A stretch of DNA of 64,000 nt from Dehalococcoidia bacterium (GTDB taxonomy: Bacteria > Chloroflexota > Dehalococcoidia > Lucifugimonadales > UBA1127): positions 258,587 to 322,586 of the forward strand of contig CBDBGD010000007.1 in NCBI GenBank assembly GCA_965205235.1. Reading direction: 5' to 3'. Every line of letters starts with the position of its first letter. Position 1 is the first letter of the stretch. The notes under the pieces are model-generated. The model was not told where the DNA came from, made no database searches, and was given only the letters and a program-made list of their open reading frames with translations. This document shows positions 7,201 through 55,707 of this stretch, in pieces. The translations under genes and the position numbers were made by a program.

Positions 7201-8557
7201 ATGGCACGGCGTCACCACGGACGCCAACGGCCGCGTCATCGGCCTGGACCTCTCCGGCAACGGACTCAGCGGGGAGATACCCCCACAGCTGGGCGACCTC
7301 TCCAACCTGGAGTTGTTGCTCCTCGACAACAACCAGTTGACCGGGGAGATACCGCCGGAGCTGGGCAGCCTCACCCGCCTCCGGGAGCTGTTTCTCGGCG
7401 GCAACCGATTGAGCGGGGAGATACCGGCGGCCTTGGGCCGGCTACGCCTCCTGCAGGTGCTGGGCCTCTCCCTCAACCAGTTGACCGGGGAGATCCCGCC
7501 GGACCTGGGCAACCTCCCCAGCCTTCAATTGGTGCTCCTCGCCGGCAACCGACTGGTGGGATGCATACCCGCCAGATGGCGGAACGTGGAAGGCGACGTG
7601 GACGAGATGGGCCTGCTCTTCTGCGGCGGCGCATCTGACCGGGATGCTCTTGTCGCCCTCTACGACGCCACCCGCGGCGCGGAGGATTGGATTGACAGCA
7701 CGAACTGGCTGAGCGACGCGCCCCTGGGAGAGTGGCATGGCGTCACCACGGACGCCGATGGCCGCGTCATCGGCCTGGACCTCTCCAGCAACCAGGTGAA
7801 CGGGGAGATACCGGCGGCCCTGGGCAGCCTCTCCGACCTTCAAGCCCTGGACCTCTCTGACAACTGGTTGAGCGGGGAGATACCGGCAGCACTGGGCAGC
7901 CTCTCCAACCTTCAGGAGTTGGACCTCTCTTGGGACAGGGACAGAGACCGCAACTACCCTGGAGAGTTGACAGGGGCGATACCCCCGGAGCTGGGGAACC
8001 TCTCCGGCCTTCGGCGGCTGGACATCTCTCACCACCAGTTGAGCGGGGCGATTCCGTCGGAGCTGGGCAGCCTCCCCAACCTGCGAGAGCTGCGCCTCCG
8101 CGACAACCGGCTGACCGGGGATATCCCGCCGGAGCTGGCCAACCTCGCCAACCTGGAGGTCTTGAGCCTCTCCGTGAACCAGTTGACCGGGGATATCCCG
8201 CCGGAGTTGGGCAACCTCGCCAGCCTGGAGGAGTTGTTCCTCGCCGGCAACCAGCTGACCGGGGCGATCACACGGGAGTTGGGCAACCTCTCCAACCTGA
8301 GGGTGTTGTCCCTCTCCTACAACCAGCTGAGCGGGGCGATCCCGCGGGAGTTGGGCAACCTCTCCAACCTGGAGGGGCTGGCCCTCTCCTACAACCAGTT
8401 AGCCGGGGAGATCCCGCCGGAATTAGGCAGCCTCTCCAACCTTCAGGGGGTGTTCATCCGCTCCAACGAATTGAGCGGGTGCATACCCGGTGCATGGCGG
8501 GACGTGCCCCGTAACGACTTCGACGACCCCAGGGTTCGGCTGCCCTTCTGCGAATGA
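4226..8557 (+). CDS. lipoprotein with five tandem plant-type leucine-rich-repeat modules
   Basis: Signal peptide plus lipobox ([12 protein letters not shown] at ATG 4226). A ~350-aa unknown N-domain is followed by 5 modules. Each module starts with an LRRNT-like cap ([38 protein letters not shown].NGRV), continues with 24-aa [25 protein letters not shown] repeats, and ends with a Cys cap ([12 protein letters not shown]....LFC). Confidence 0.85.
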   Translation: [1443 protein letters not shown]

Positions 8558-8835
8558 AGCTGCGCTCGGCTGACATCCACCGGCAAGAGGGCGGCCTGAA
8601 TGACCCCGGTGCCAAGCGGGGGCCATCGATCGGCTAAGGCTCTGCGGCCGACGAGTACCGGCTGGCGATGGCGTCCTCGGAGAACGCGGCCATAGTTGGG
8701 CTGTCCAGGCCGGCGTCGGGAGGAGGAGTCGCTGGGCCAGAGAGCGCCGCTCTTCGACGTCGAGGCCGTGCCCCGGTCCGACCCGGAGTGGGGAGGTGAC
8801 ATGCGAGACGTGCTGGTGGCACTGCGTAGGGTGCA

Positions 8836-8967
8836 GTGCCACGGGGTGGCCGGTTTCTGCTGTGGATCGGCCTGGCGCTGGTCCTAACGGGGTTGGCCCT
8901 CTTGTACTACGGCTATGAGGCGGCCATCGGCAACGTCCTGAACGAGATTGCATCCTGGACCGGGTGA
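8836..8967 (+). CDS. possible 43-aa single-pass membrane micro-protein
   Basis: Not in the ORF track (<60 aa). A GTG start follows a TAG, giving VPRGGRFLLWIGLALVLTGLALLYYGYEAAIGNVLNEIASWTG*. The stop lies 16 nt before the TM2 gene ATG and just before its AAGGAGG. Confidence 0.25.
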   Translation: MPRGGRFLLWIGLALVLTGLALLYYGYEAAIGNVLNEIASWTG

Positions 8968-8983
8968 CACAAGGAGGCCTGGT

Positions 8984-9397
8984 ATGGAGGGACGAGTACA
9001 GGACTGCTCCGGTAGGTCCGGCACCATCATCGACAGCGATGGGCATTGCTACCGGTTTGGTGCAGCGGACTGGAATGTGAGAAGAGACCCTACGAGGGGC
9101 CAGACGGTGCAGTTCCTGGCCTCCGGGGACAGGGCCGTCGCCATCTACCCTGCAGTGCATCTTCCGTTCCTGCCCATGGTGAGGAGGAAGAAAAGGGCGA
9201 CGGCAATCCTGCTGGCCATCTTCCTGGGCTGCCTGGGCGCACACAAGTTCTACCTCGGCCGCCACGTCGGGGGCATCGTTTACCTCATCCTCGCTCTGAC
9301 CCTCGTCGGCGCCTTGATCACCACCATCCTGTCGATTATCGACATGGTTGGGATGCTGCTCATGTCCGACGACGACTTCGAGCGCGTGTTCGGCTAG
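8984..9397 (+). CDS. TM2 domain-containing membrane protein
   Basis: AAGGAGG sits 6 nt upstream of ATG 8984. The TM2 signature is present (AILLAIFLGCLGAHKFYLGR...GIVYLIL...). Confidence 0.8.
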   Translation: MEGRVQDCSGRSGTIIDSDGHCYRFGAADWNVRRDPTRGQTVQFLASGDRAVAIYPAVHLPFLPMVRRKKRATAILLAIFLGCLGAHKFYLGRHVGGIVYLILALTLVGALITTILSIIDMVGMLLMSDDDFERVFG

Positions 9398-44504: not shown

Positions 44505-45653
44505 TTAGTCACTCAGGTAATCCGCCCAAAGCTGCATCAGGGCGCGGCGGCGCTCGAAGAGATCCGACCGGGCATAGGCCTGCTCGGTCGAGTTGCCCAG
44601 GGTGTGGGCAAGGGCGGCCTCCGACACGGCCCAGGGTGTATCCGTCTGCTCCAGGGTCCAGTTCTTGAAACTGCTCCGAAAGCCGTGGACCGTCGCACGC
44701 TCCGCCAGACCGAGGGACCGCAGCACCTTCGTCAGTGTCATGTCCGACATGGGAGCCTCCGGCTTCAGTGGCGACGGAAACACCAGGCCCGATTCATCCC
44801 GCAAAGCCGATGCCTCTCTGAGAACATCGAGGACTTGCCTGCTTAGGGGCACCCGGTGCTCGACGCCTGCCTTCATCCGTTGGGCCGATATGCGCCAGAC
44901 CTTGCCCTGGAGGTCGATCTCGTCCCAGGTGGCGCTCCTGGCCTCGCCGGAACGGGCAGCGGTGAGCACCAGAAACCGGAAGCAGAGCCTGGCGGCCAAA
45001 GAGGCCTGGGAGGCCTCCACGGTCTCGAGTGCCGCTCCGACGTCCTGGTAGGGCAGCGCTCTGTGGTGGGCGTTGACCTTTGGCATAGGGGGCAACGCCC
45101 CGTCGATGGCTTCACCCGCGGGGTTGGTCTCGATGAAGCCGTGGGCCATGGCCCACCTGAAGATGGTCCGCATCCGCTGGCGCACCCGCCGGGCGGTCTC
45201 GGGCCGGCTAGTCCATATTGGGGTGAGGACGCGCAGCACATCGCCGCGGTCTATCCGGTCCAGGGTAGTGTTGCCAAGTGTCGGCATGGCATGACGCTCC
45301 AGGCTCTGCATCCAGCCGGCGTTGTGCTTGGCGTTGCGCCAGCGGGGTGCATTCGCCTCGTGGACGGCACGGGCGGCCTCTCTGAACGTCGGCATCGCAG
45401 GAGCTCGCTTCTCCGCCAGGGGATCCCGCCCCTCAGCAACGGCCGCTCGGATGCCTGTCGTCTTCTCTCGAGCTTGGGCCAAACTGATGGAGGGGAACGC
45501 TCCTAGACCTATATCCCTTCGCCGTCCGTCGATAGTGATCCGCAGGACCCAGTACTTGCTCCCCGCCTTACTGATGTAGAGGTGCAGACCCCCGCCGTCG
45601 GAATATCGTCCTGGTTGGGTGAGGGCCTTGACCCGGGTCGCCGAGAGTGCCAT
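44505..45653 (-). CDS. int: tyrosine recombinase/integrase, P4-like with DUF4102-type arm-binding N-terminus
   Basis: N-terminus LSATRVKAL..GRYSDGGGLHLYISKAGSKYWVLR. Catalytic residues in LTAARSGEAR, HGFRSSFKNW and LAHTLGNSTEQAYARSD. Confidence 0.9.
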   Translation of the reverse strand: MALSATRVKALTQPGRYSDGGGLHLYISKAGSKYWVLRITIDGRRRDIGLGAFPSISLAQAREKTTGIRAAVAEGRDPLAEKRAPAMPTFREAARAVHEANAPRWRNAKHNAGWMQSLERHAMPTLGNTTLDRIDRGDVLRVLTPIWTSRPETARRVRQRMRTIFRWAMAHGFIETNPAGEAIDGALPPMPKVNAHHRALPYQDVGAALETVEASQASLAARLCFRFLVLTAARSGEARSATWDEIDLQGKVWRISAQRMKAGVEHRVPLSRQVLDVLREASALRDESGLVFPSPLKPEAPMSDMTLTKVLRSLGLAERATVHGFRSSFKNWTLEQTDTPWAVSEAALAHTLGNSTEQAYARSDLFERRRALMQLWADYLSD

Positions 45654-45815
45654 GGAGCCCCTCCGAAGCCAAATCTGTTCCCACACATATTACCACAATT
45701 GGAGTGGGATAGCGAGGGACACAGAGGGCACGGAAGGGCATAGACTCGGTGATTCGCAGCTACGGAATCAAGGGGGTATGGAGCACAAGAGGGCACGGCT
45801 AGAAATAGCGAGCGG

Positions 45816-45901
45816 CGGAGGGGGTGGGATTCGAACCCACGATCCCGCGAGGGGATTCCGGTTTTCAAGACCGGCGCCATCGTCCACTCGGCCACCCCTC
45901 C
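45816..45901 (-). tRNA. tRNA-Ser (anticodon UGA)
   Basis: Folded by hand. Acceptor stem GGAGGGG/CCCCTCC, anticodon arm CCGGT-CTTGAAA-ACCGG, long variable arm ATCCC-CTCGC-GGGAT, T arm GTGGG-TTCGAAT-CCCAC. CCA is not encoded. Confidence 0.9.
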
Positions 45902-46047
45902 GCAACGAGCAACGGACTGCAGCGCCCAGATGCGTGCCGACACCGGACCGCATCGCCTCTATTCTACCAAGGTACGGGCCGTACTCGGAGGCTGTCGCTA
46001 ATCGCATGGTACAATTCGGCGCGACCCGGCAATGGGGGTATCGGACC

Positions 46048-46563
46048 ATGAAAAGCGGAGCAGGGACGGTCGAGGAGTACCTGGCGGAGCTGACACGGGA
46101 GCGGCGTGCTGCGGTGTCCGCCGTCCGCGAGGTCATCCTGGCCAACCTGCCGGAGGGCTACGAGGAGACGATGGACTTTGGGATGGTCTCCTACGTCGTG
46201 CCGCTCGCCCGCTACCCCAAGACGTACAACGGCCACCCCCTGCAGTACGCGGCGGTCTCGTCCGAGAAGAGCTACGTCTCGGTCCACCTCATGGGCATCT
46301 ACGCCGACGCCGAGAGCCAGCAATGGTTCGTCGAGAGTTACAAGGCCACCGGTAAGAAGCTGAATATGGGGAAGGCGTGCGTCCGCTTCAAGAACCTCGA
46401 CGACTTTCCGCTCGACGTGATCGGGGAGGCCGTCGGCCGCACGCCGATGGAGGAGTGGATACGGTACTACGAGGCTGCCCGTTCGGCCAGGAGACCCGCC
46501 AAGCGGAAGCAGGGGTGGGGGAGGGCTACTAACGCCCGGTTAGGCCGGAAGGAACCCCGATGA
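46048..46563 (+). CDS. DUF1801 (YdhG-like) domain protein
   Basis: TVEEYLAEL..ERRAAVSAVREVILANLPEGYEETMDFGMVSY...YVSVHLMG pattern. The ORF-track N-terminus overlapping the tRNA is rejected. Confidence 0.65.
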   Translation: MKSGAGTVEEYLAELTRERRAAVSAVREVILANLPEGYEETMDFGMVSYVVPLARYPKTYNGHPLQYAAVSSEKSYVSVHLMGIYADAESQQWFVESYKATGKKLNMGKACVRFKNLDDFPLDVIGEAVGRTPMEEWIRYYEAARSARRPAKRKQGWGRATNARLGRKEPR

Positions 46564-48713
46564 CGTTCGCGTTCAATACACTGCGGAGCCCCAGGAGACT
46601 CGCTCACCGAGTCATGTGGGTTAGCTCACTCTGTCTCATGGCCACCGTCCTTATGGCAGCATGCGCGGACGACCGTCAAACCGTACCTACAGTCGAACCT
46701 ACACCCCTGCCAACTCCAGAACCTACACCTACACCGACACCGACACCAACTCCCACACCAACTCCTGAGCCTATACCGACACCTGAGCCCACATCGACAC
46801 CAGCTCCGAAACCCACCCCCACGCCAACTCCGGAACCCACACCGCCACCACCCCCGAGACCGCTTACTTCTGCCGAGATCTTCAGCAGAGTCTCACCATC
46901 CATCGCATTTGTAGAAACACGCAGTGGCACGGGCAGTGGGGTGTTGACCGCAGGAGGATACCTAGTAACGAACGCTCACGTAGTTTGGCCATACGATACT
47001 GCACGCATCGTTTTCCCCGACGGCTCAGAGTTCGCGGAGGTACGCGTTCATGGCTGGGACCTACTCGTAGACCTAGCCGTGCTTGGCCCCATTGATGTGG
47101 ACCTGGACACCTTGGCATTAGTGGATGGCGAGAGCCTGTCCATCGGTGTCGAGGTATTCTTGATAGGTTACCCGGGAGAGATTGAGGAATTCCCTAAGCC
47201 ATCAATCGGACGAGGGCTATTGTCTCGTGTCCGGGAGATGGAGTCTCTTGGTATCACCTACCTGCAGACCGATGCACCTGTGATAGGTGGCCAGAGTGGT
47301 GGGGCGCTTGTGTCTGCGATGGGAGAGGTGATTGGTATCAGTGGCTTTGCATTCACCGAAGGGGATTTCGGAATCGCTGCATCGTCTTCAGACATCGAGC
47401 CGCGTGTCAGACAACTGATCACTGGCGAGGACCCATCTGGACTGGGCGACAGGAGCCTCCCTCTATCCGGAGGGGACCTCCGTCACAATGTCCGGCTCCG
47501 CAATTTTTGGGCCCAACACGTCTACGTGATCAACGAGTCGTCGGGTACCACCGTCGAATTCGAGCTTGCTGGCAACAGCGATGGCGTGATCACCGTATAC
47601 GACTCTTTTGCTTCAGAGCTGCTCTATGTCGACGATAACAGCACAGGAGAAGAGATTGGTTCAGTAGCCATCGCGTACGATGAACCTCACTTCTTGGTTG
47701 TATCTCACCTGTCCGAGACCCCCGGTGACTTCACCTTGACAAGCAGCCACCGACTAGCGTCCCTTCATGACCCAGACGATGGCCAGCAAATCGAGATAGG
47801 ACAGCCCCTCTTGGGAAACATAGACTTCCCTGGGGACGTTGACTACTTCTTTGTTCACCTCACAGAAGGTGAGGTCATTGAAGTCGTAGCGCGCTCTGTA
47901 CTCGCCGACACCTTTCTGAGTATCGACTATCTGGGAGCATTAGATGAGCAGATAATCGTAGATGACGACCGCGGAGGCGGCCTGTTCGGACTGGATTCGA
48001 TGGTCGTCTACCGAGCGCCCCACACTGGGAACTACTTTGCGGTTGTGCATGACGCAAACTCTTACGCTCCTGGCGGATATGTCATCACCGTGGATCGTGC
48101 TCATCCTGGAGCTACTCCAACGACAACGACGCTGGCCTCCCTATTTGAGGAGCAAGGTGACGGTATTGGCTCGGTTGCATCTTCCGATTTCGGGCTGATT
48201 GAACTACGGGCGGCGTTCCAGGGCCTACCAACCTCCTTCTATGAAGCAGACCCAGCAGATCTGGATCTCTCAATCGCAGGACTGGGATTGGAGGACTACT
48301 TCAACACCCTAGTCATATTCGTCAATGAAGATCCCTTCCAGATGATCATGGCGGCAACCGGACAGGTCAGCGAATCTGAACGCGAAGCGTGGGATGTGGA
48401 ACTGTCATCGGTCACTTTTGTGGACGATGTGGTGCAGGGGTTCCTCGCTGAAGCTGAGGGGGAAGAGAGTTTCGAGCTCCACGCCAGTGGAAGTCTGGAG
48501 TCGTCCGCGGTTGGAGTGAGCTCGTCTGGCGCCTATCTGGACGCCACTATCGAAGGAATTCGGCTACACATAGAACTCATCATGTTTAGGCGCGGGGACC
48601 TCGTTGGAGTCGTCTACTCTTACGGTCTCCCGGGAACAGAACTATCCGTATCAGTCGAAGAGGCGACGCGGATGCTTGACAGCCAAATTAGCGCCGTCAT
48701 ATTGGCAAGGTAA
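46560..48713 (+). CDS. secreted trypsin-like (S1) serine protease with PT-rich linker and PPC-like C-terminal region
   Basis: Signal/TM segment, ~55-aa Pro/Thr linker, catalytic His in VTNAHVV, Asp in DLAVL, Ser in GGQSGGALV, and a later GDVDYFFVHLTEGEVIEV (pre-peptidase C-terminal-like). Confidence 0.8.
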   Translation: MTFAFNTLRSPRRLAHRVMWVSSLCLMATVLMAACADDRQTVPTVEPTPLPTPEPTPTPTPTPTPTPTPEPIPTPEPTSTPAPKPTPTPTPEPTPPPPPRPLTSAEIFSRVSPSIAFVETRSGTGSGVLTAGGYLVTNAHVVWPYDTARIVFPDGSEFAEVRVHGWDLLVDLAVLGPIDVDLDTLALVDGESLSIGVEVFLIGYPGEIEEFPKPSIGRGLLSRVREMESLGITYLQTDAPVIGGQSGGALVSAMGEVIGISGFAFTEGDFGIAASSSDIEPRVRQLITGEDPSGLGDRSLPLSGGDLRHNVRLRNFWAQHVYVINESSGTTVEFELAGNSDGVITVYDSFASELLYVDDNSTGEEIGSVAIAYDEPHFLVVSHLSETPGDFTLTSSHRLASLHDPDDGQQIEIGQPLLGNIDFPGDVDYFFVHLTEGEVIEVVARSVLADTFLSIDYLGALDEQIIVDDDRGGGLFGLDSMVVYRAPHTGNYFAVVHDANSYAPGGYVITVDRAHPGATPTTTTLASLFEEQGDGIGSVASSDFGLIELRAAFQGLPTSFYEADPADLDLSIAGLGLEDYFNTLVIFVNEDPFQMIMAATGQVSESEREAWDVELSSVTFVDDVVQGFLAEAEGEESFELHASGSLESSAVGVSSSGAYLDATIEGIRLHIELIMFRRGDLVGVVYSYGLPGTELSVSVEEATRMLDSQISAVILAR

Positions 48714-48785
48714 GACCGTTGGCAGGGAGCAGGCACGAGACAGAGCATCGCGCCCAAATGTTCACTGTCACGCTAGGAGGATGAC

Positions 48786-54069: not shown

Positions 54070-55707
54070 CTACGACGTCTCGCCGTAGACCGCGGTGGTG
54101 GGGTGGAAGAGGTACCAGCCGAACCAGTAGGCGATGTTGCTGTGAATGCGGGCCAGCCACTGGTCAGGTGCGCCCTCCAGGACCAGAGCGTCCTCCTCCA
54201 TCCGCCAGGACCGCCCCTGCTCGTCCACCAAGGCCGGGGCGGCGGCATCCGGCTCCGGGGGCAGGCTGAAGGTGTGGTCGCCTCGCTCGTAGACGCGGCC
54301 GCCCACGGGGCCGCTGGAGACGACGACCACGTTCTCACCGCCCAGCATGTCGTTCAGGAGGACGGCCTCGTGTAGCGCTGTCAGGAGGTATGCCTTTGGT
54401 TGGCCGTTGATGCGAAGCCCCAGCACCTCGACCTTCTCCGGCAACAACTCACTGCGCCGCCAGGCAGGGAACATGGCCTGAGGACTCAGGCGGTAGCCGT
54501 AGTAGACGGAGCCGCTGTTCTCCTCCGGGCGATAGGCCCACTTGGGATAGACACCCGTGTCGTCGCTCAGCACGGTGGTGTCGGGGTGAGCCGCGAGCCA
54601 CTCGCCCCAGGAGGTGACCACCACAGGCAGCGCTTCCAGCACCAGGCCGCTGTCGACCAGCGGGCCCACGATGGGCTCTCCAAGGAACTGCTGCCACATG
54701 GTCTTGGTCTGCCGGTCGTACATCATCTTGTTGGCACGATGCATGAACCAAGGCGTGGCGAACTCGAACACCTGCCCGTCGACCTCCCTGGCATACACGA
54801 TGCCAGAACCGCAGACGGTTCAGTAGGCGAGCGCGATAGGGACGCCTCCCAGCACGTCGTTGGCCATCTCATGCAGGTTCATGACCCGGTGCGGGTAGGC
54901 CCGGTGCTCACCATTGATGGAGACGCCGAAGACTCGATCTCCGGGAGCCAGGTACGTAGCCTCGGTCGGTGAGATGACCGGCGCGTTGGTCAGGGCGGGG
55001 ATGCCCGCCTCGTCGACGCCGCCCCAGACCACCTCCTCCAGCCGGATCCGAGTCTTGACCCCCTCGTAGAAGAAGCTGCCCACTTCCTCGTTGAAGAGGC
55101 GAGTGTAGAGCTTGCCCTTGAACTCGGCGTACCCCGGCGGGCCTGTCACCTCGGGGTGCCGGCCCAGCCACTCCAGCCACCAGTTCCACCATCGGTCCTC
55201 CCACAGCGGCTGCGCCCCCTGGTACGCCTCGAGGAGCTGCTCCAGGGCCTGATACACGGCGGTGCCTACGATAGCGTCCAAGCGAAACTGGAAACGGGCG
55301 AACTCCAGCAGGACGGGGATGTAGGAGGGGTCGCCACTTTCGCCCATCTCCCGGATGACTGCGATCTCGCCCACGAGCGCCTGGCTCAGGGCCGCCGACA
55401 TGAGCCTCTGCGGGGTCCTGGGCACGTCGGCGGCGGCTCTGGACGACTCTGAGGGCGAGGGGGAGCCGGTTGCCTGCGCTGTCGGCTCTGGGGCGCTTGG
55501 GGTCGCCGTTGGCGCTGTCGCCTGCTGGGCGGCGGCTGACGTGGATGGGGCGGGGGCTTGCGCGGCAGACACCTCGACGCCTTGCGTGGTCGGGGCTTCT
55601 TCGTCGCTGCCGGAGGAGCAGCCGGCGAGGGCCAGCGCGGCAAGGAGCACAGCCGTGCTCAGGAAAGACCAGCGCCCTACTCCGCGTATCCTGTTCATCC
55701 CACCCAT
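54070..55707 (-). CDS. DUF3179-domain lipoprotein with in-frame TGA (54822-54820): candidate selenoprotein, or a nonsense pseudogene
   Basis: Lipobox LALAGC. Two same-frame ORFs are split only by the TGA. One DUF3179 domain runs across it: ...HEMANDVLGGVPIALAY-[TGA]-TVCGSGIVYAREVDGQVFEF...MMYDRQTKTMWQQ. Confidence 0.6.
54776..54819 (-). promoter_or_regulatory. SECIS-like stem-loop directly 3' of the TGA
   Basis: Lower stem CCGUC (54818-54814) / GACGG (54780-54776). A 5x5 internal loop. Upper stem UUCUGGCAU (54808-54800) / AUGCCAGGG (54794-54786), made of 7 Watson-Crick and 2 G-U pairs. Apical loop CGUGU (54799-54795). Confidence 0.4.

Follow-up and report, generated by a model that had tools for sequence, protein, structure and literature searches.

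A probable selenocysteine-containing DUF3179 lipoprotein of uncultured Dehalococcoidia and its bacterial SECIS hairpin

We analysed a 64-kb stretch of DNA from an uncultured Dehalococcoidia bacterium (GenBank assembly GCA_965205235.1, contig CBDBGD010000007.1, positions 258,587 to 322,586; hereafter the window, to whose internal positions all plain coordinates refer). A gene on its minus strand very probably encodes a selenocysteine (Sec)-containing DUF3179 protein, a predicted lipoprotein, with Sec insertion at an in-frame UGA directed by a bacterial selenocysteine insertion sequence (SECIS) hairpin. We hold this reading with high confidence because of the conservation of the codon, the covariation of the hairpin, the control offered by cysteine (Cys) forms of the gene and the purifying selection on the part downstream of the UGA. 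From 55707 down to 54070 the strand holds a single reading frame of 545 codons, with one in-frame TGA (54822-54820) and a terminal TAG; besides that TGA, neither a stop nor a frameshift is found across the 545 codons. As a preliminary description of the stretch had noted, two open reading frames (ORFs), 55707 to 54820 (295 amino acids plus the TGA) and 54798 to 54070 (242 amino acids), share this frame and have the TGA as their sole separator. Its proposal that reading through the codon yields one continuous DUF3179 domain also holds: with the stop masked, the product gives a single unbroken match to PF11376 (residues 234-538, profile positions 2-292 of 292; E 6.9e-63, 213.2 bits against a gathering score of 27), and the TGA, at residue 296, falls in the middle of that domain.

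According to the model that we propose, UGA 54822-54820 would not be read as a stop. A stem-loop beginning 1 nucleotide (nt) downstream would present the loop C-G-U-G-U 20 nt after the UGA, and we infer that this apical loop is the binding site for SelB carrying Sec-tRNA(Sec). Selenium would be incorporated through Sec inserted as residue 296, and translation would go on for 249 codons. In the predicted product, a signal peptide and a flexible linker precede a helical region, and the beta-rich DUF3179 domain carries the motif U296-x-x-C299. The features of the gene, all on the minus strand, are as follows, with their basis in brackets; dN/dS denotes the ratio of nonsynonymous to synonymous substitution rates.

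54070-55707, minus: predicted complete selenoprotein gene, 545 codons including one Sec-UGA, TAG stop at 54072-54070 (single frame, PF11376 across the TGA, dN/dS)
55618-55707, minus: predicted signal peptide of a lipoprotein, residues 1-30; lipobox L-A-G-C, its Cys30 encoded at 55620-55618 (sequence pattern)
55009-55617, minus: linker rich in Pro, Ala, Ser and Thr (roughly residues 31-100), followed by a conserved helical N-terminal region (roughly 100-233) (composition, consensus, homologue model)
54094-55008, minus: DUF3179 (PF11376) domain, residues 234-538 (Pfam match, homologue model)
54820-54822, minus: putative Sec-encoding UGA, residue 296 (Cys column in homologues, TGA in relatives)
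54811-54822, minus: U-T-V-C motif (UxxC), a putative redox or metal-ligand site (sequence, homologue alignment, homologue model)
54776-54818, minus: full SECIS-like stem-loop with lower stem, internal loop, upper stem of 9 base pairs (bp) and 5-nt loop (fold)
54789-54805, minus: family-wide SECIS core, a 6-bp stem (54805-54800 with 54794-54789) and the loop CGUGU at 54799-54795 (comparative)

Conservation of the TGA codon and selection on the reading frame

A search of a protein collection returned 1506 homologues. The eight closest Sec-clade entries (P0001-P0007, 81-99% identity, and P0119, 57%) are all annotated as C-terminal fragments of 218-248 residues, and thus gene callers break many relatives at the same place; the clusters to which they belong hold ~38 distinct sequences, some of them on Mb-scale contigs. 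The GTG that starts the 242-amino-acid second ORF (54798-54796) is the conserved GUG inside the apical loop of the hairpin, which accounts for the shared first residue of many database entries (MYAREV...); other gene callers place alternative starts downstream, giving versions of 218-233 amino acids. Of 112 full-length homologues, 111 carry Cys at the Sec column, in the context Y-C-T-L-C-G-[AS]-G, and the second Cys never varies. The preliminary description, which had placed the UGA at the first Cys of a CxxC pair and looked to the homologues for a Cys in this column, is borne out in both respects, apart from the motif that it gave, YCPLC. The sole full-length homologue without Cys, P0008, has Trp, encoded by a genuine TGG codon (L006:10571-10573) on a contig labelled 2x coverage; a code-4 translation artefact was rejected, the codon being TGG. 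This locus, L006, the closest full-length homologue, carries TGG at the Sec codon, yet retains the hairpin GGAAU-CGUGU-AUUCC, and reflects either a very recent change from UGA to UGG, placing Trp in the active-site position, or a read error.

At the DNA level, TGA stands at the identical codon in five fragment-type metagenomic relatives (L001-L005). A scan of one genome per GTDB species yielded 586 relatives; in all of the best 80, which were examined as DNA and range from 49% to 86% identity to the window, the Sec codon is TGA. Nearly all of these 80 are labelled as Dehalococcoidia or Chloroflexota metagenome-assembled genomes (MAGs), SAR202 included, and one as Microthrixaceae. In total, 86 TGA sites were counted by pattern, plus those of L016 and L021, and neither TGC nor TGT occurs among them. 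The closest relative, L009, lies on a closed 2.28-Mb chromosome (OZ252225.1); over 15 kb the two sequences, L009 and the window, run collinear and share 86% nucleotide identity. The motif reads U-T-V-C in the window and U-T-L-C in most relatives, with the second Cys codon invariant (T10 and G11 in the hairpin alignment, A2), and the seven codons between the TGA and the GTG (TVCGSGI) are conserved, this Cys included.

Selection on the frame was estimated by the Nei-Gojobori method, comparing the window with the Sec-form orthologues L001, L002, L004 and L005. The dN/dS was 0.09-0.13 over 120 codons upstream of the TGA and 0.20-0.26 over the 249 codons downstream; the half of the gene that follows the TGA is translated and under purifying selection. 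Elsewhere in the window TGA is an ordinary stop, ending 8 of the 22 long ORFs, and a scan of the window for in-frame TGAs flanked by coding-like sequence returned the DUF3179 site only, the other high scorers being antisense frames of known genes. Thus, the genetic code is standard. Gene calling of the window by G+C content at third codon positions was confounded by antisense frames and was set aside.

Some individual loci depart from the general pattern. In L016 and L021 (position 10184 in both), Asn precedes the Sec position (...LAN-U-TLCGSG), where Tyr or Trp is otherwise nearly invariant, and two genomes hold a second DUF3179 paralogue with TGA at the same column (L010:4630-4632 and L066:14662-14664). 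A Sec-form locus, L087, occurs on a 2.7-kb contig (JBQTKH010000200.1) of the MAG labelled Microthrixaceae (Actinomycetota), and its stem variant, GGCAU/AUGCC, is that of the window clade; given the short contig, mis-binning is as likely as horizontal transfer. Two products of 287 and 222 amino acids on a 74-kb contig (P0151/P0152, within the P0012 cluster of Cys forms) were considered as a recent Cys-to-Sec event. That candidate was rejected, since a frameshift lies about 30 residues after the CxxC, and the split is probably an assembly indel or a pseudogene with no recoding event.

The hairpin downstream of the UGA

The stem-loop that had been proposed at 54818-54776 folds as described, beginning 1 nt after the UGA, with a lower stem CCGUC/GACGG, an internal loop, a 9-bp upper stem and the 5-nt loop CGUGU. 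An extended structure of this kind is also found in the close relatives L001-L004 and L009. Conservation throughout the family, however, is confined to the loop and the inner 6 bp of the upper stem. Outside the window clade, the lower stem and the three outermost pairs of the upper stem are for the most part not formed, being a local extension specific to that clade. Both the window and all aligned loci place the apical loop 20 nt after the UGA.

The comparative data give a cleaner picture of the SECIS than the single-sequence fold. Alignment A2 is ungapped and comprises 83 distinct sequences, from which RNAalifold recovered a 6-bp stem (columns 18-23 with 29-34) and its 5-nt loop. Within the hairpin, the third codon positions at nt 21, 24, 27, 30 and 33 (Gly, Ile, Val, Tyr and Ser) are nearly invariant, and those outside it, at nt 6, 9, 15, 36, 42, 48 and 54, vary freely. 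In three close relatives and on small counts, synonymous divergence (dS) is 0.09-0.19 in the 16 hairpin codons against 0.36-0.48 in the remaining codons downstream of the TGA. At pair 18-34, 36 of the 83 sequences have CG, 35 UA, two GC and one UG, and nine are unpaired; one partner is a synonymous third position and the other the first base of the codon six codons further on, an association for which protein constraints offer no explanation. Pair 21-31 is AU in 71 sequences, GU in four and CG in six (the window clade and L087), the window clade thus carrying a compensatory change from AU to CG. For the full structure the covariation score is 0.120, compared with 0.077 in column shuffles (0 of 500 reach the observed value) and 0.016-0.069 in slid controls. 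The near-invariant 15-nt SECIS core reads GGAAUCGUGUAUUCC.

Cys forms provide a control, albeit a small one: four distinct TGC forms keep 2-3 of the six core pairs, against 5-6 of six in 85 of the 86 TGA forms. For instance, the TGC form L089 encodes the same G-I-V-Y peptide through GGC-AUC-GUC-UAC, and its stem and loop are both destroyed. The hairpin is maintained as an RNA element and accompanies the UGA, and orthologues combining a TGA with a conserved hairpin, which the preliminary description had suggested looking for, are plentiful. In the L010 paralogue (Y-U-P-L-C-N), a wholly different stem, CCGCCU/AGGCGG, shifted by one register, surrounds the same CGUGU, which suggests that the loop sequence is the recognised feature.

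The bSECISearch model of bacterial SECIS elements, as summarised in PMC13188914 (Fig. 2A), has an apical loop of 3-9 nt on an upper stem of 4-16 bp, a G at loop position 1 or 2 with, as a rule, G or U after it, a distance of 16-37 nt from the UGA to the loop, and a minimum free energy of -7.5 kcal/mol or lower. The window hairpin, with its 5-nt loop, 9-bp stem and spacing of 20 nt, folds at -25 kcal/mol. Across the family, the loop is 5 nt long at all 86 TGA sites and the stem is contiguous over 5-9 bp at 84; loop sequences are CGUGU (82), AGUGU (3) and AGUCU (1), so that a G at position 2 followed by U occurs in 86 of 86. With the core enforced, the energy is -7.5 kcal/mol or lower in 85 of the 86 loci (median -14.4). 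The geometry, claimed beforehand to be typical of bacterial SECIS elements, is thus found in the window and, by criterion, at 84-86 of the 86 sites.

Selenocysteine decoding and rival explanations

Several observations weigh against Sec insertion. The window hairpin scores z = -2.57, and 5 of 200 dinucleotide shuffles are equally stable; taken by itself, this is only modestly better than chance, suggestive and not decisive. The end bases of the loop, C and U, are unpaired, so that the closing pair of the commonest bacterial SECIS pattern is absent. Folded by itself, the 24-nt core hairpin has a weak energy of -4 to -5 kcal/mol in roughly half of the family, and at 23 of 86 loci the structure containing the core is not the one of minimum free energy. 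Rfam, at gathering and at permissive thresholds, gave no match to the hairpin. No selA, selB, selD or tRNA-Sec was found in the 64-kb window or in ~1.7 Mb of the relatives' flanks: tblastn searches of the window and of L001-L006 with the E. coli proteins SelA, SelB and SelD returned none (best E 0.24), and ARAGORN no tRNA-Sec in the window or the relatives' loci. The absence of such genes from a 64-kb slice of a genome is uninformative; the source genome is assumed to decode Sec on the strength of relatives and the literature, in which we found no experimental selenium incorporation for any member of the DUF3179 family.

Other candidates for the machinery proved to be something else. SelA-like tblastn matches among 90+ loci (L046, L047, L064, L076 and L084) were assigned by NCBIfam to a pyridoxal phosphate (PLP) ammonia-lyase of the DgaE family (TIGR01437), and a SelD-like match in L047 to a HypE/ThiL-like relative of AIR synthase, below all NCBIfam cutoffs. 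The window tRNA-Ser with anticodon UGA, which reads UCA, is an ordinary tRNA-Ser and not a Sec tRNA. In five loci the gene for this DgaE-family enzyme (D-glucosaminate-6-phosphate ammonia-lyase; below the curated cutoff, E 1e-69) is found upstream of the DUF3179 gene at a distance of a few kb:

L046:7836-8990: SelA-related PLP enzyme, not SelA
L047:5332-6468: SelA-related PLP enzyme, not SelA
L064, about 8324-8992: SelA-related PLP enzyme, not SelA
L076:3469-4608: SelA-related PLP enzyme, not SelA
L084:5685-6827: SelA-related PLP enzyme, not SelA

Indirect support for Sec decoding comes from a second selenoprotein candidate. In the metagenomic locus L005, from a relative at 57% identity, a thioredoxin gene (L005:2743-3144) lies two genes downstream of the DUF3179 gene and has an in-frame TGA (2836-2838) at the first Cys of its CGPC-equivalent motif (FWTHR-U-GAC), with PF00085 matching across the TGA (E 1.4e-16). 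Sec-thioredoxin is a known selenoprotein family. The 60 nt after this TGA fold no better than shuffles (z -0.49). A search of all loci for Sec/Cys pairs recovered DUF3179 in every locus, the remainder being antisense or off-frame artefacts or gene junctions. A second line of indirect support is that BSepDB counts two Dehalococcoidia MAGs, which have 49 and 46 selenoprotein genes, as some of the richest selenoproteomes in bacteria (PMC13326102).

Of the rival explanations, the one that survives best, although improbable, has the UGA read as a standard amino acid (Trp, Cys, Gly or Arg), either by near-cognate suppression aided by the hairpin or under a reassigned code. Downstream hairpins can stimulate read-through in general, which speaks for it, as do the lack of Sec machinery in the window and flanks and the Trp of L006. 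Yet that Trp comes from the contig labelled 2x coverage, TGA terminates genes in the window, where it has no other credible in-frame occurrence, and Cys at the same column in homologues is the classic Sec/Cys signature. The hairpin, moreover, fits the geometry and the loop rule of bacterial SECIS elements, DUF3179 already figures in selenoprotein catalogues, and Dehalococcoidia are reported to have many selenoproteins. Slightly less credible still is the production of two proteins, a truncated lipoprotein of 295 residues and a 242-residue protein starting at GTG 54798, in spite of its being the annotation of every database entry found (P0001-P0007, P0119). The break would divide one Pfam domain near its middle, where in the predicted fold one beta-strand gives way to the next, the Cys homologues are single polypeptides, the TVCGSGI codons that precede the supposed start are conserved, and the GTG itself is the GUG of the hairpin loop. 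A pseudogene, arisen by a TGC/TGT-to-TGA nonsense mutation in a Cys-type DUF3179 gene, was the alternative that the preliminary description had kept open. It would need one base change only, and L006 does carry another single-base variant, TGG, at the codon; nevertheless, the TGA shared by the best 80 genomic and the five metagenomic relatives at 49-86% identity excludes a simple mutation, and neither the downstream dN/dS nor a frame devoid of other stops and frameshifts is what a pseudogene would leave, so that we consider this explanation very remote. A sequencing or assembly error in the window, for which nothing specific speaks, is negligible in the face of an identical codon in independent assemblies from many samples and technologies.

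The predicted protein, its evolution and its relation to known systems

Read as Sec, the UGA restores one protein of 545 residues. Its N-terminus displays, in order, a basic n-region, a hydrophobic stretch and the LAGC lipobox at residues 27-30, and A-C at the lipobox place is kept in the family consensus. Substrates of signal peptidase II have a lipobox of the form [LVI][ASTVI][GAS]C. Among 85 upstream ORFs of Sec forms, 62 show a simple lipobox pattern within the first 45 amino acids, as do 38 of the 111 Cys homologues of full length. From this pattern, the window product is predicted to be a lipoprotein, exported and lipid-anchored via Cys30 on the outer face of the cytoplasmic membrane. 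The helical N-terminal region that follows the linker has a conserved consensus (GDxSxxPVxxxLLRF...WxEWLG); it matches no Pfam family, giving merely sub-threshold HEAT-like matches (E 0.03).

We modelled the structure of a Cys homologue, P0011 (51% identical to the window product), from a 36-sequence alignment, with a predicted local distance difference test score (pLDDT) of 91.3 and a predicted template modelling score (pTM) of 0.88. In this model the N-terminal region is helical and the DUF3179 domain beta-rich; the Sec-equivalent Cys213 ends a beta-strand and Cys216 sits in the 4-residue turn before the next strand. The domain appears to be an internal tandem duplication, because its two predicted halves share one strand pattern: residues 175-223 and 347-395 have it in common together with the motif VxGxxxxGxxxAYP...ND.LGG, and the U/CxxC turn occurs in the first repeat only. 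Neither a profile search of the PDB (best E 0.4) nor Foldseek (best E 0.11, template modelling (TM) score ~0.1) returned a significant relative of DUF3179. Nor is a thioredoxin-like fold indicated, with no Pfam match to the thioredoxin (Trx) clan and the motif placed in a strand-turn-strand of the P0011 model. Most likely, U296-x-x-C299 is a selenenylsulfide redox centre; alternatively, the two residues may be a Se/S pair of metal ligands, and the existence of catalogued UxxT forms argues against an obligatory two-ligand metal site.

Gene neighbourhood offers no clue to function, as no real family recurs in more than ~19 of 85 loci. Compared with the collinear L009, the window carries about 2.2 kb of extra DNA at 46510-48775, next to the tRNA-Ser(UGA) gene at 45814-45901; it encodes a trypsin-like peptidase of 717 amino acids with a PPC domain (46560-48713, plus strand), and a DUF1801 domain is encoded by the ORF beside it (45619-46563).

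A neighbour-joining tree, which carries no support values, shows several Sec clades, each with 16-23 members, and individual Cys forms placed between them; 93 further Cys forms group in a large clade of their own. Since the Sec clades share the same SECIS core, Sec is, tentatively, probably ancestral within the group, with occasional switches to Cys and, in L006, to Trp. The Sec form appears to prevail among the closest relatives of the window (the best 80 of 586), and Cys forms are also numerous in the family.

DUF3179 as a selenoprotein family is not new. The family was listed as 'DUF3179 domain-containing protein' (pfam11376, UxxC/T, MBW1804167.1) by Zhang et al. 2022, citing Zhang & Gladyshev 2007 (PMC9312934; PMC1976440), and the entry was repeated in a 2026 review with MDJ0986319.1 (PMC13188914). 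By comparison of the tables and elimination, DUF3179 probably corresponds to 'OS_HP1', a family named in the 2007 study of the Olavius symbiont. Of the candidate new selenoprotein announced in the preliminary description, the Sec reading is strongly supported and the word 'new' is not, the family having been catalogued since 2007 (PMC9312934, PMC13188914); the window gene is a new, mis-annotated member. Searching the literature, we found neither a functional characterisation of a DUF3179 protein nor a paper naming both selenoproteins and SAR202. The dominance of Sec among the closest Dehalococcoidia relatives, the near-invariant and covarying SECIS core, the predicted lipoprotein and novel-fold architecture and the extra helical N-terminal region appear undocumented in the accessible literature; BSepDB may already hold these Dehalococcoidia genes.

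The main value of the present analysis lies in annotation, given that every database entry found splits the gene into two 'DUF3179 domain-containing' fragments; a conserved SECIS would ease its automatic annotation. It is possible, though we put it forward as a speculation more apt to need revision than not, that all these elements combine: a Sec form prevailing in Dehalococcoidia and marine SAR202 and held by a 15-nt SECIS core, with the product a membrane-anchored extracytoplasmic selenoprotein whose fold has no solved relative and whose UxxC lies in a beta-hairpin turn. If this were so, and undescribed beyond a catalogue line, the family could be a widespread and uncharacterised selenoenzyme, or a Se-based metal site, in ocean bacteria that are abundant and largely aerobic.

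Overall, the gene and its hairpin may be set beside three known systems. The SECIS of E. coli fdhF is the archetype of the bacterial element. With it and the bacterial consensus, the window hairpin shares its location within the coding region directly after the UGA, a 5-nt loop with G at the second position followed by U, and an upper stem of 6-9 bp; it differs from fdhF in having no sequence similarity and no evident counterpart of the bulged U of that element. With the catalogued DUF3179 selenoproteins it has in common the Pfam domain, a Sec first in a UxxC motif aligned with Cys, and a stem-loop directly after the UGA. The original member, on the other hand, came from a deltaproteobacterial Olavius symbiont and the present one from Dehalococcoidia (Chloroflexota), and where the catalogue allows UxxC/T, all 83 distinct sequences examined here are UxxC and none UxxT. 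Finally, Sec-containing oxidoreductases of the thioredoxin fold (Trx, DsbA-like, thiol:disulfide interchange proteins), whose motifs are UxxC or CxxU, also possess a Sec/Cys pair, the DsbA-like proteins share the likely extracytoplasmic location, and in L005 the Sec-thioredoxin candidate is found two genes away. In contrast to their fold, that predicted for DUF3179 is beta-rich and duplicated, with the motif in the turn of a beta-hairpin instead of at the N-terminus of a helix.

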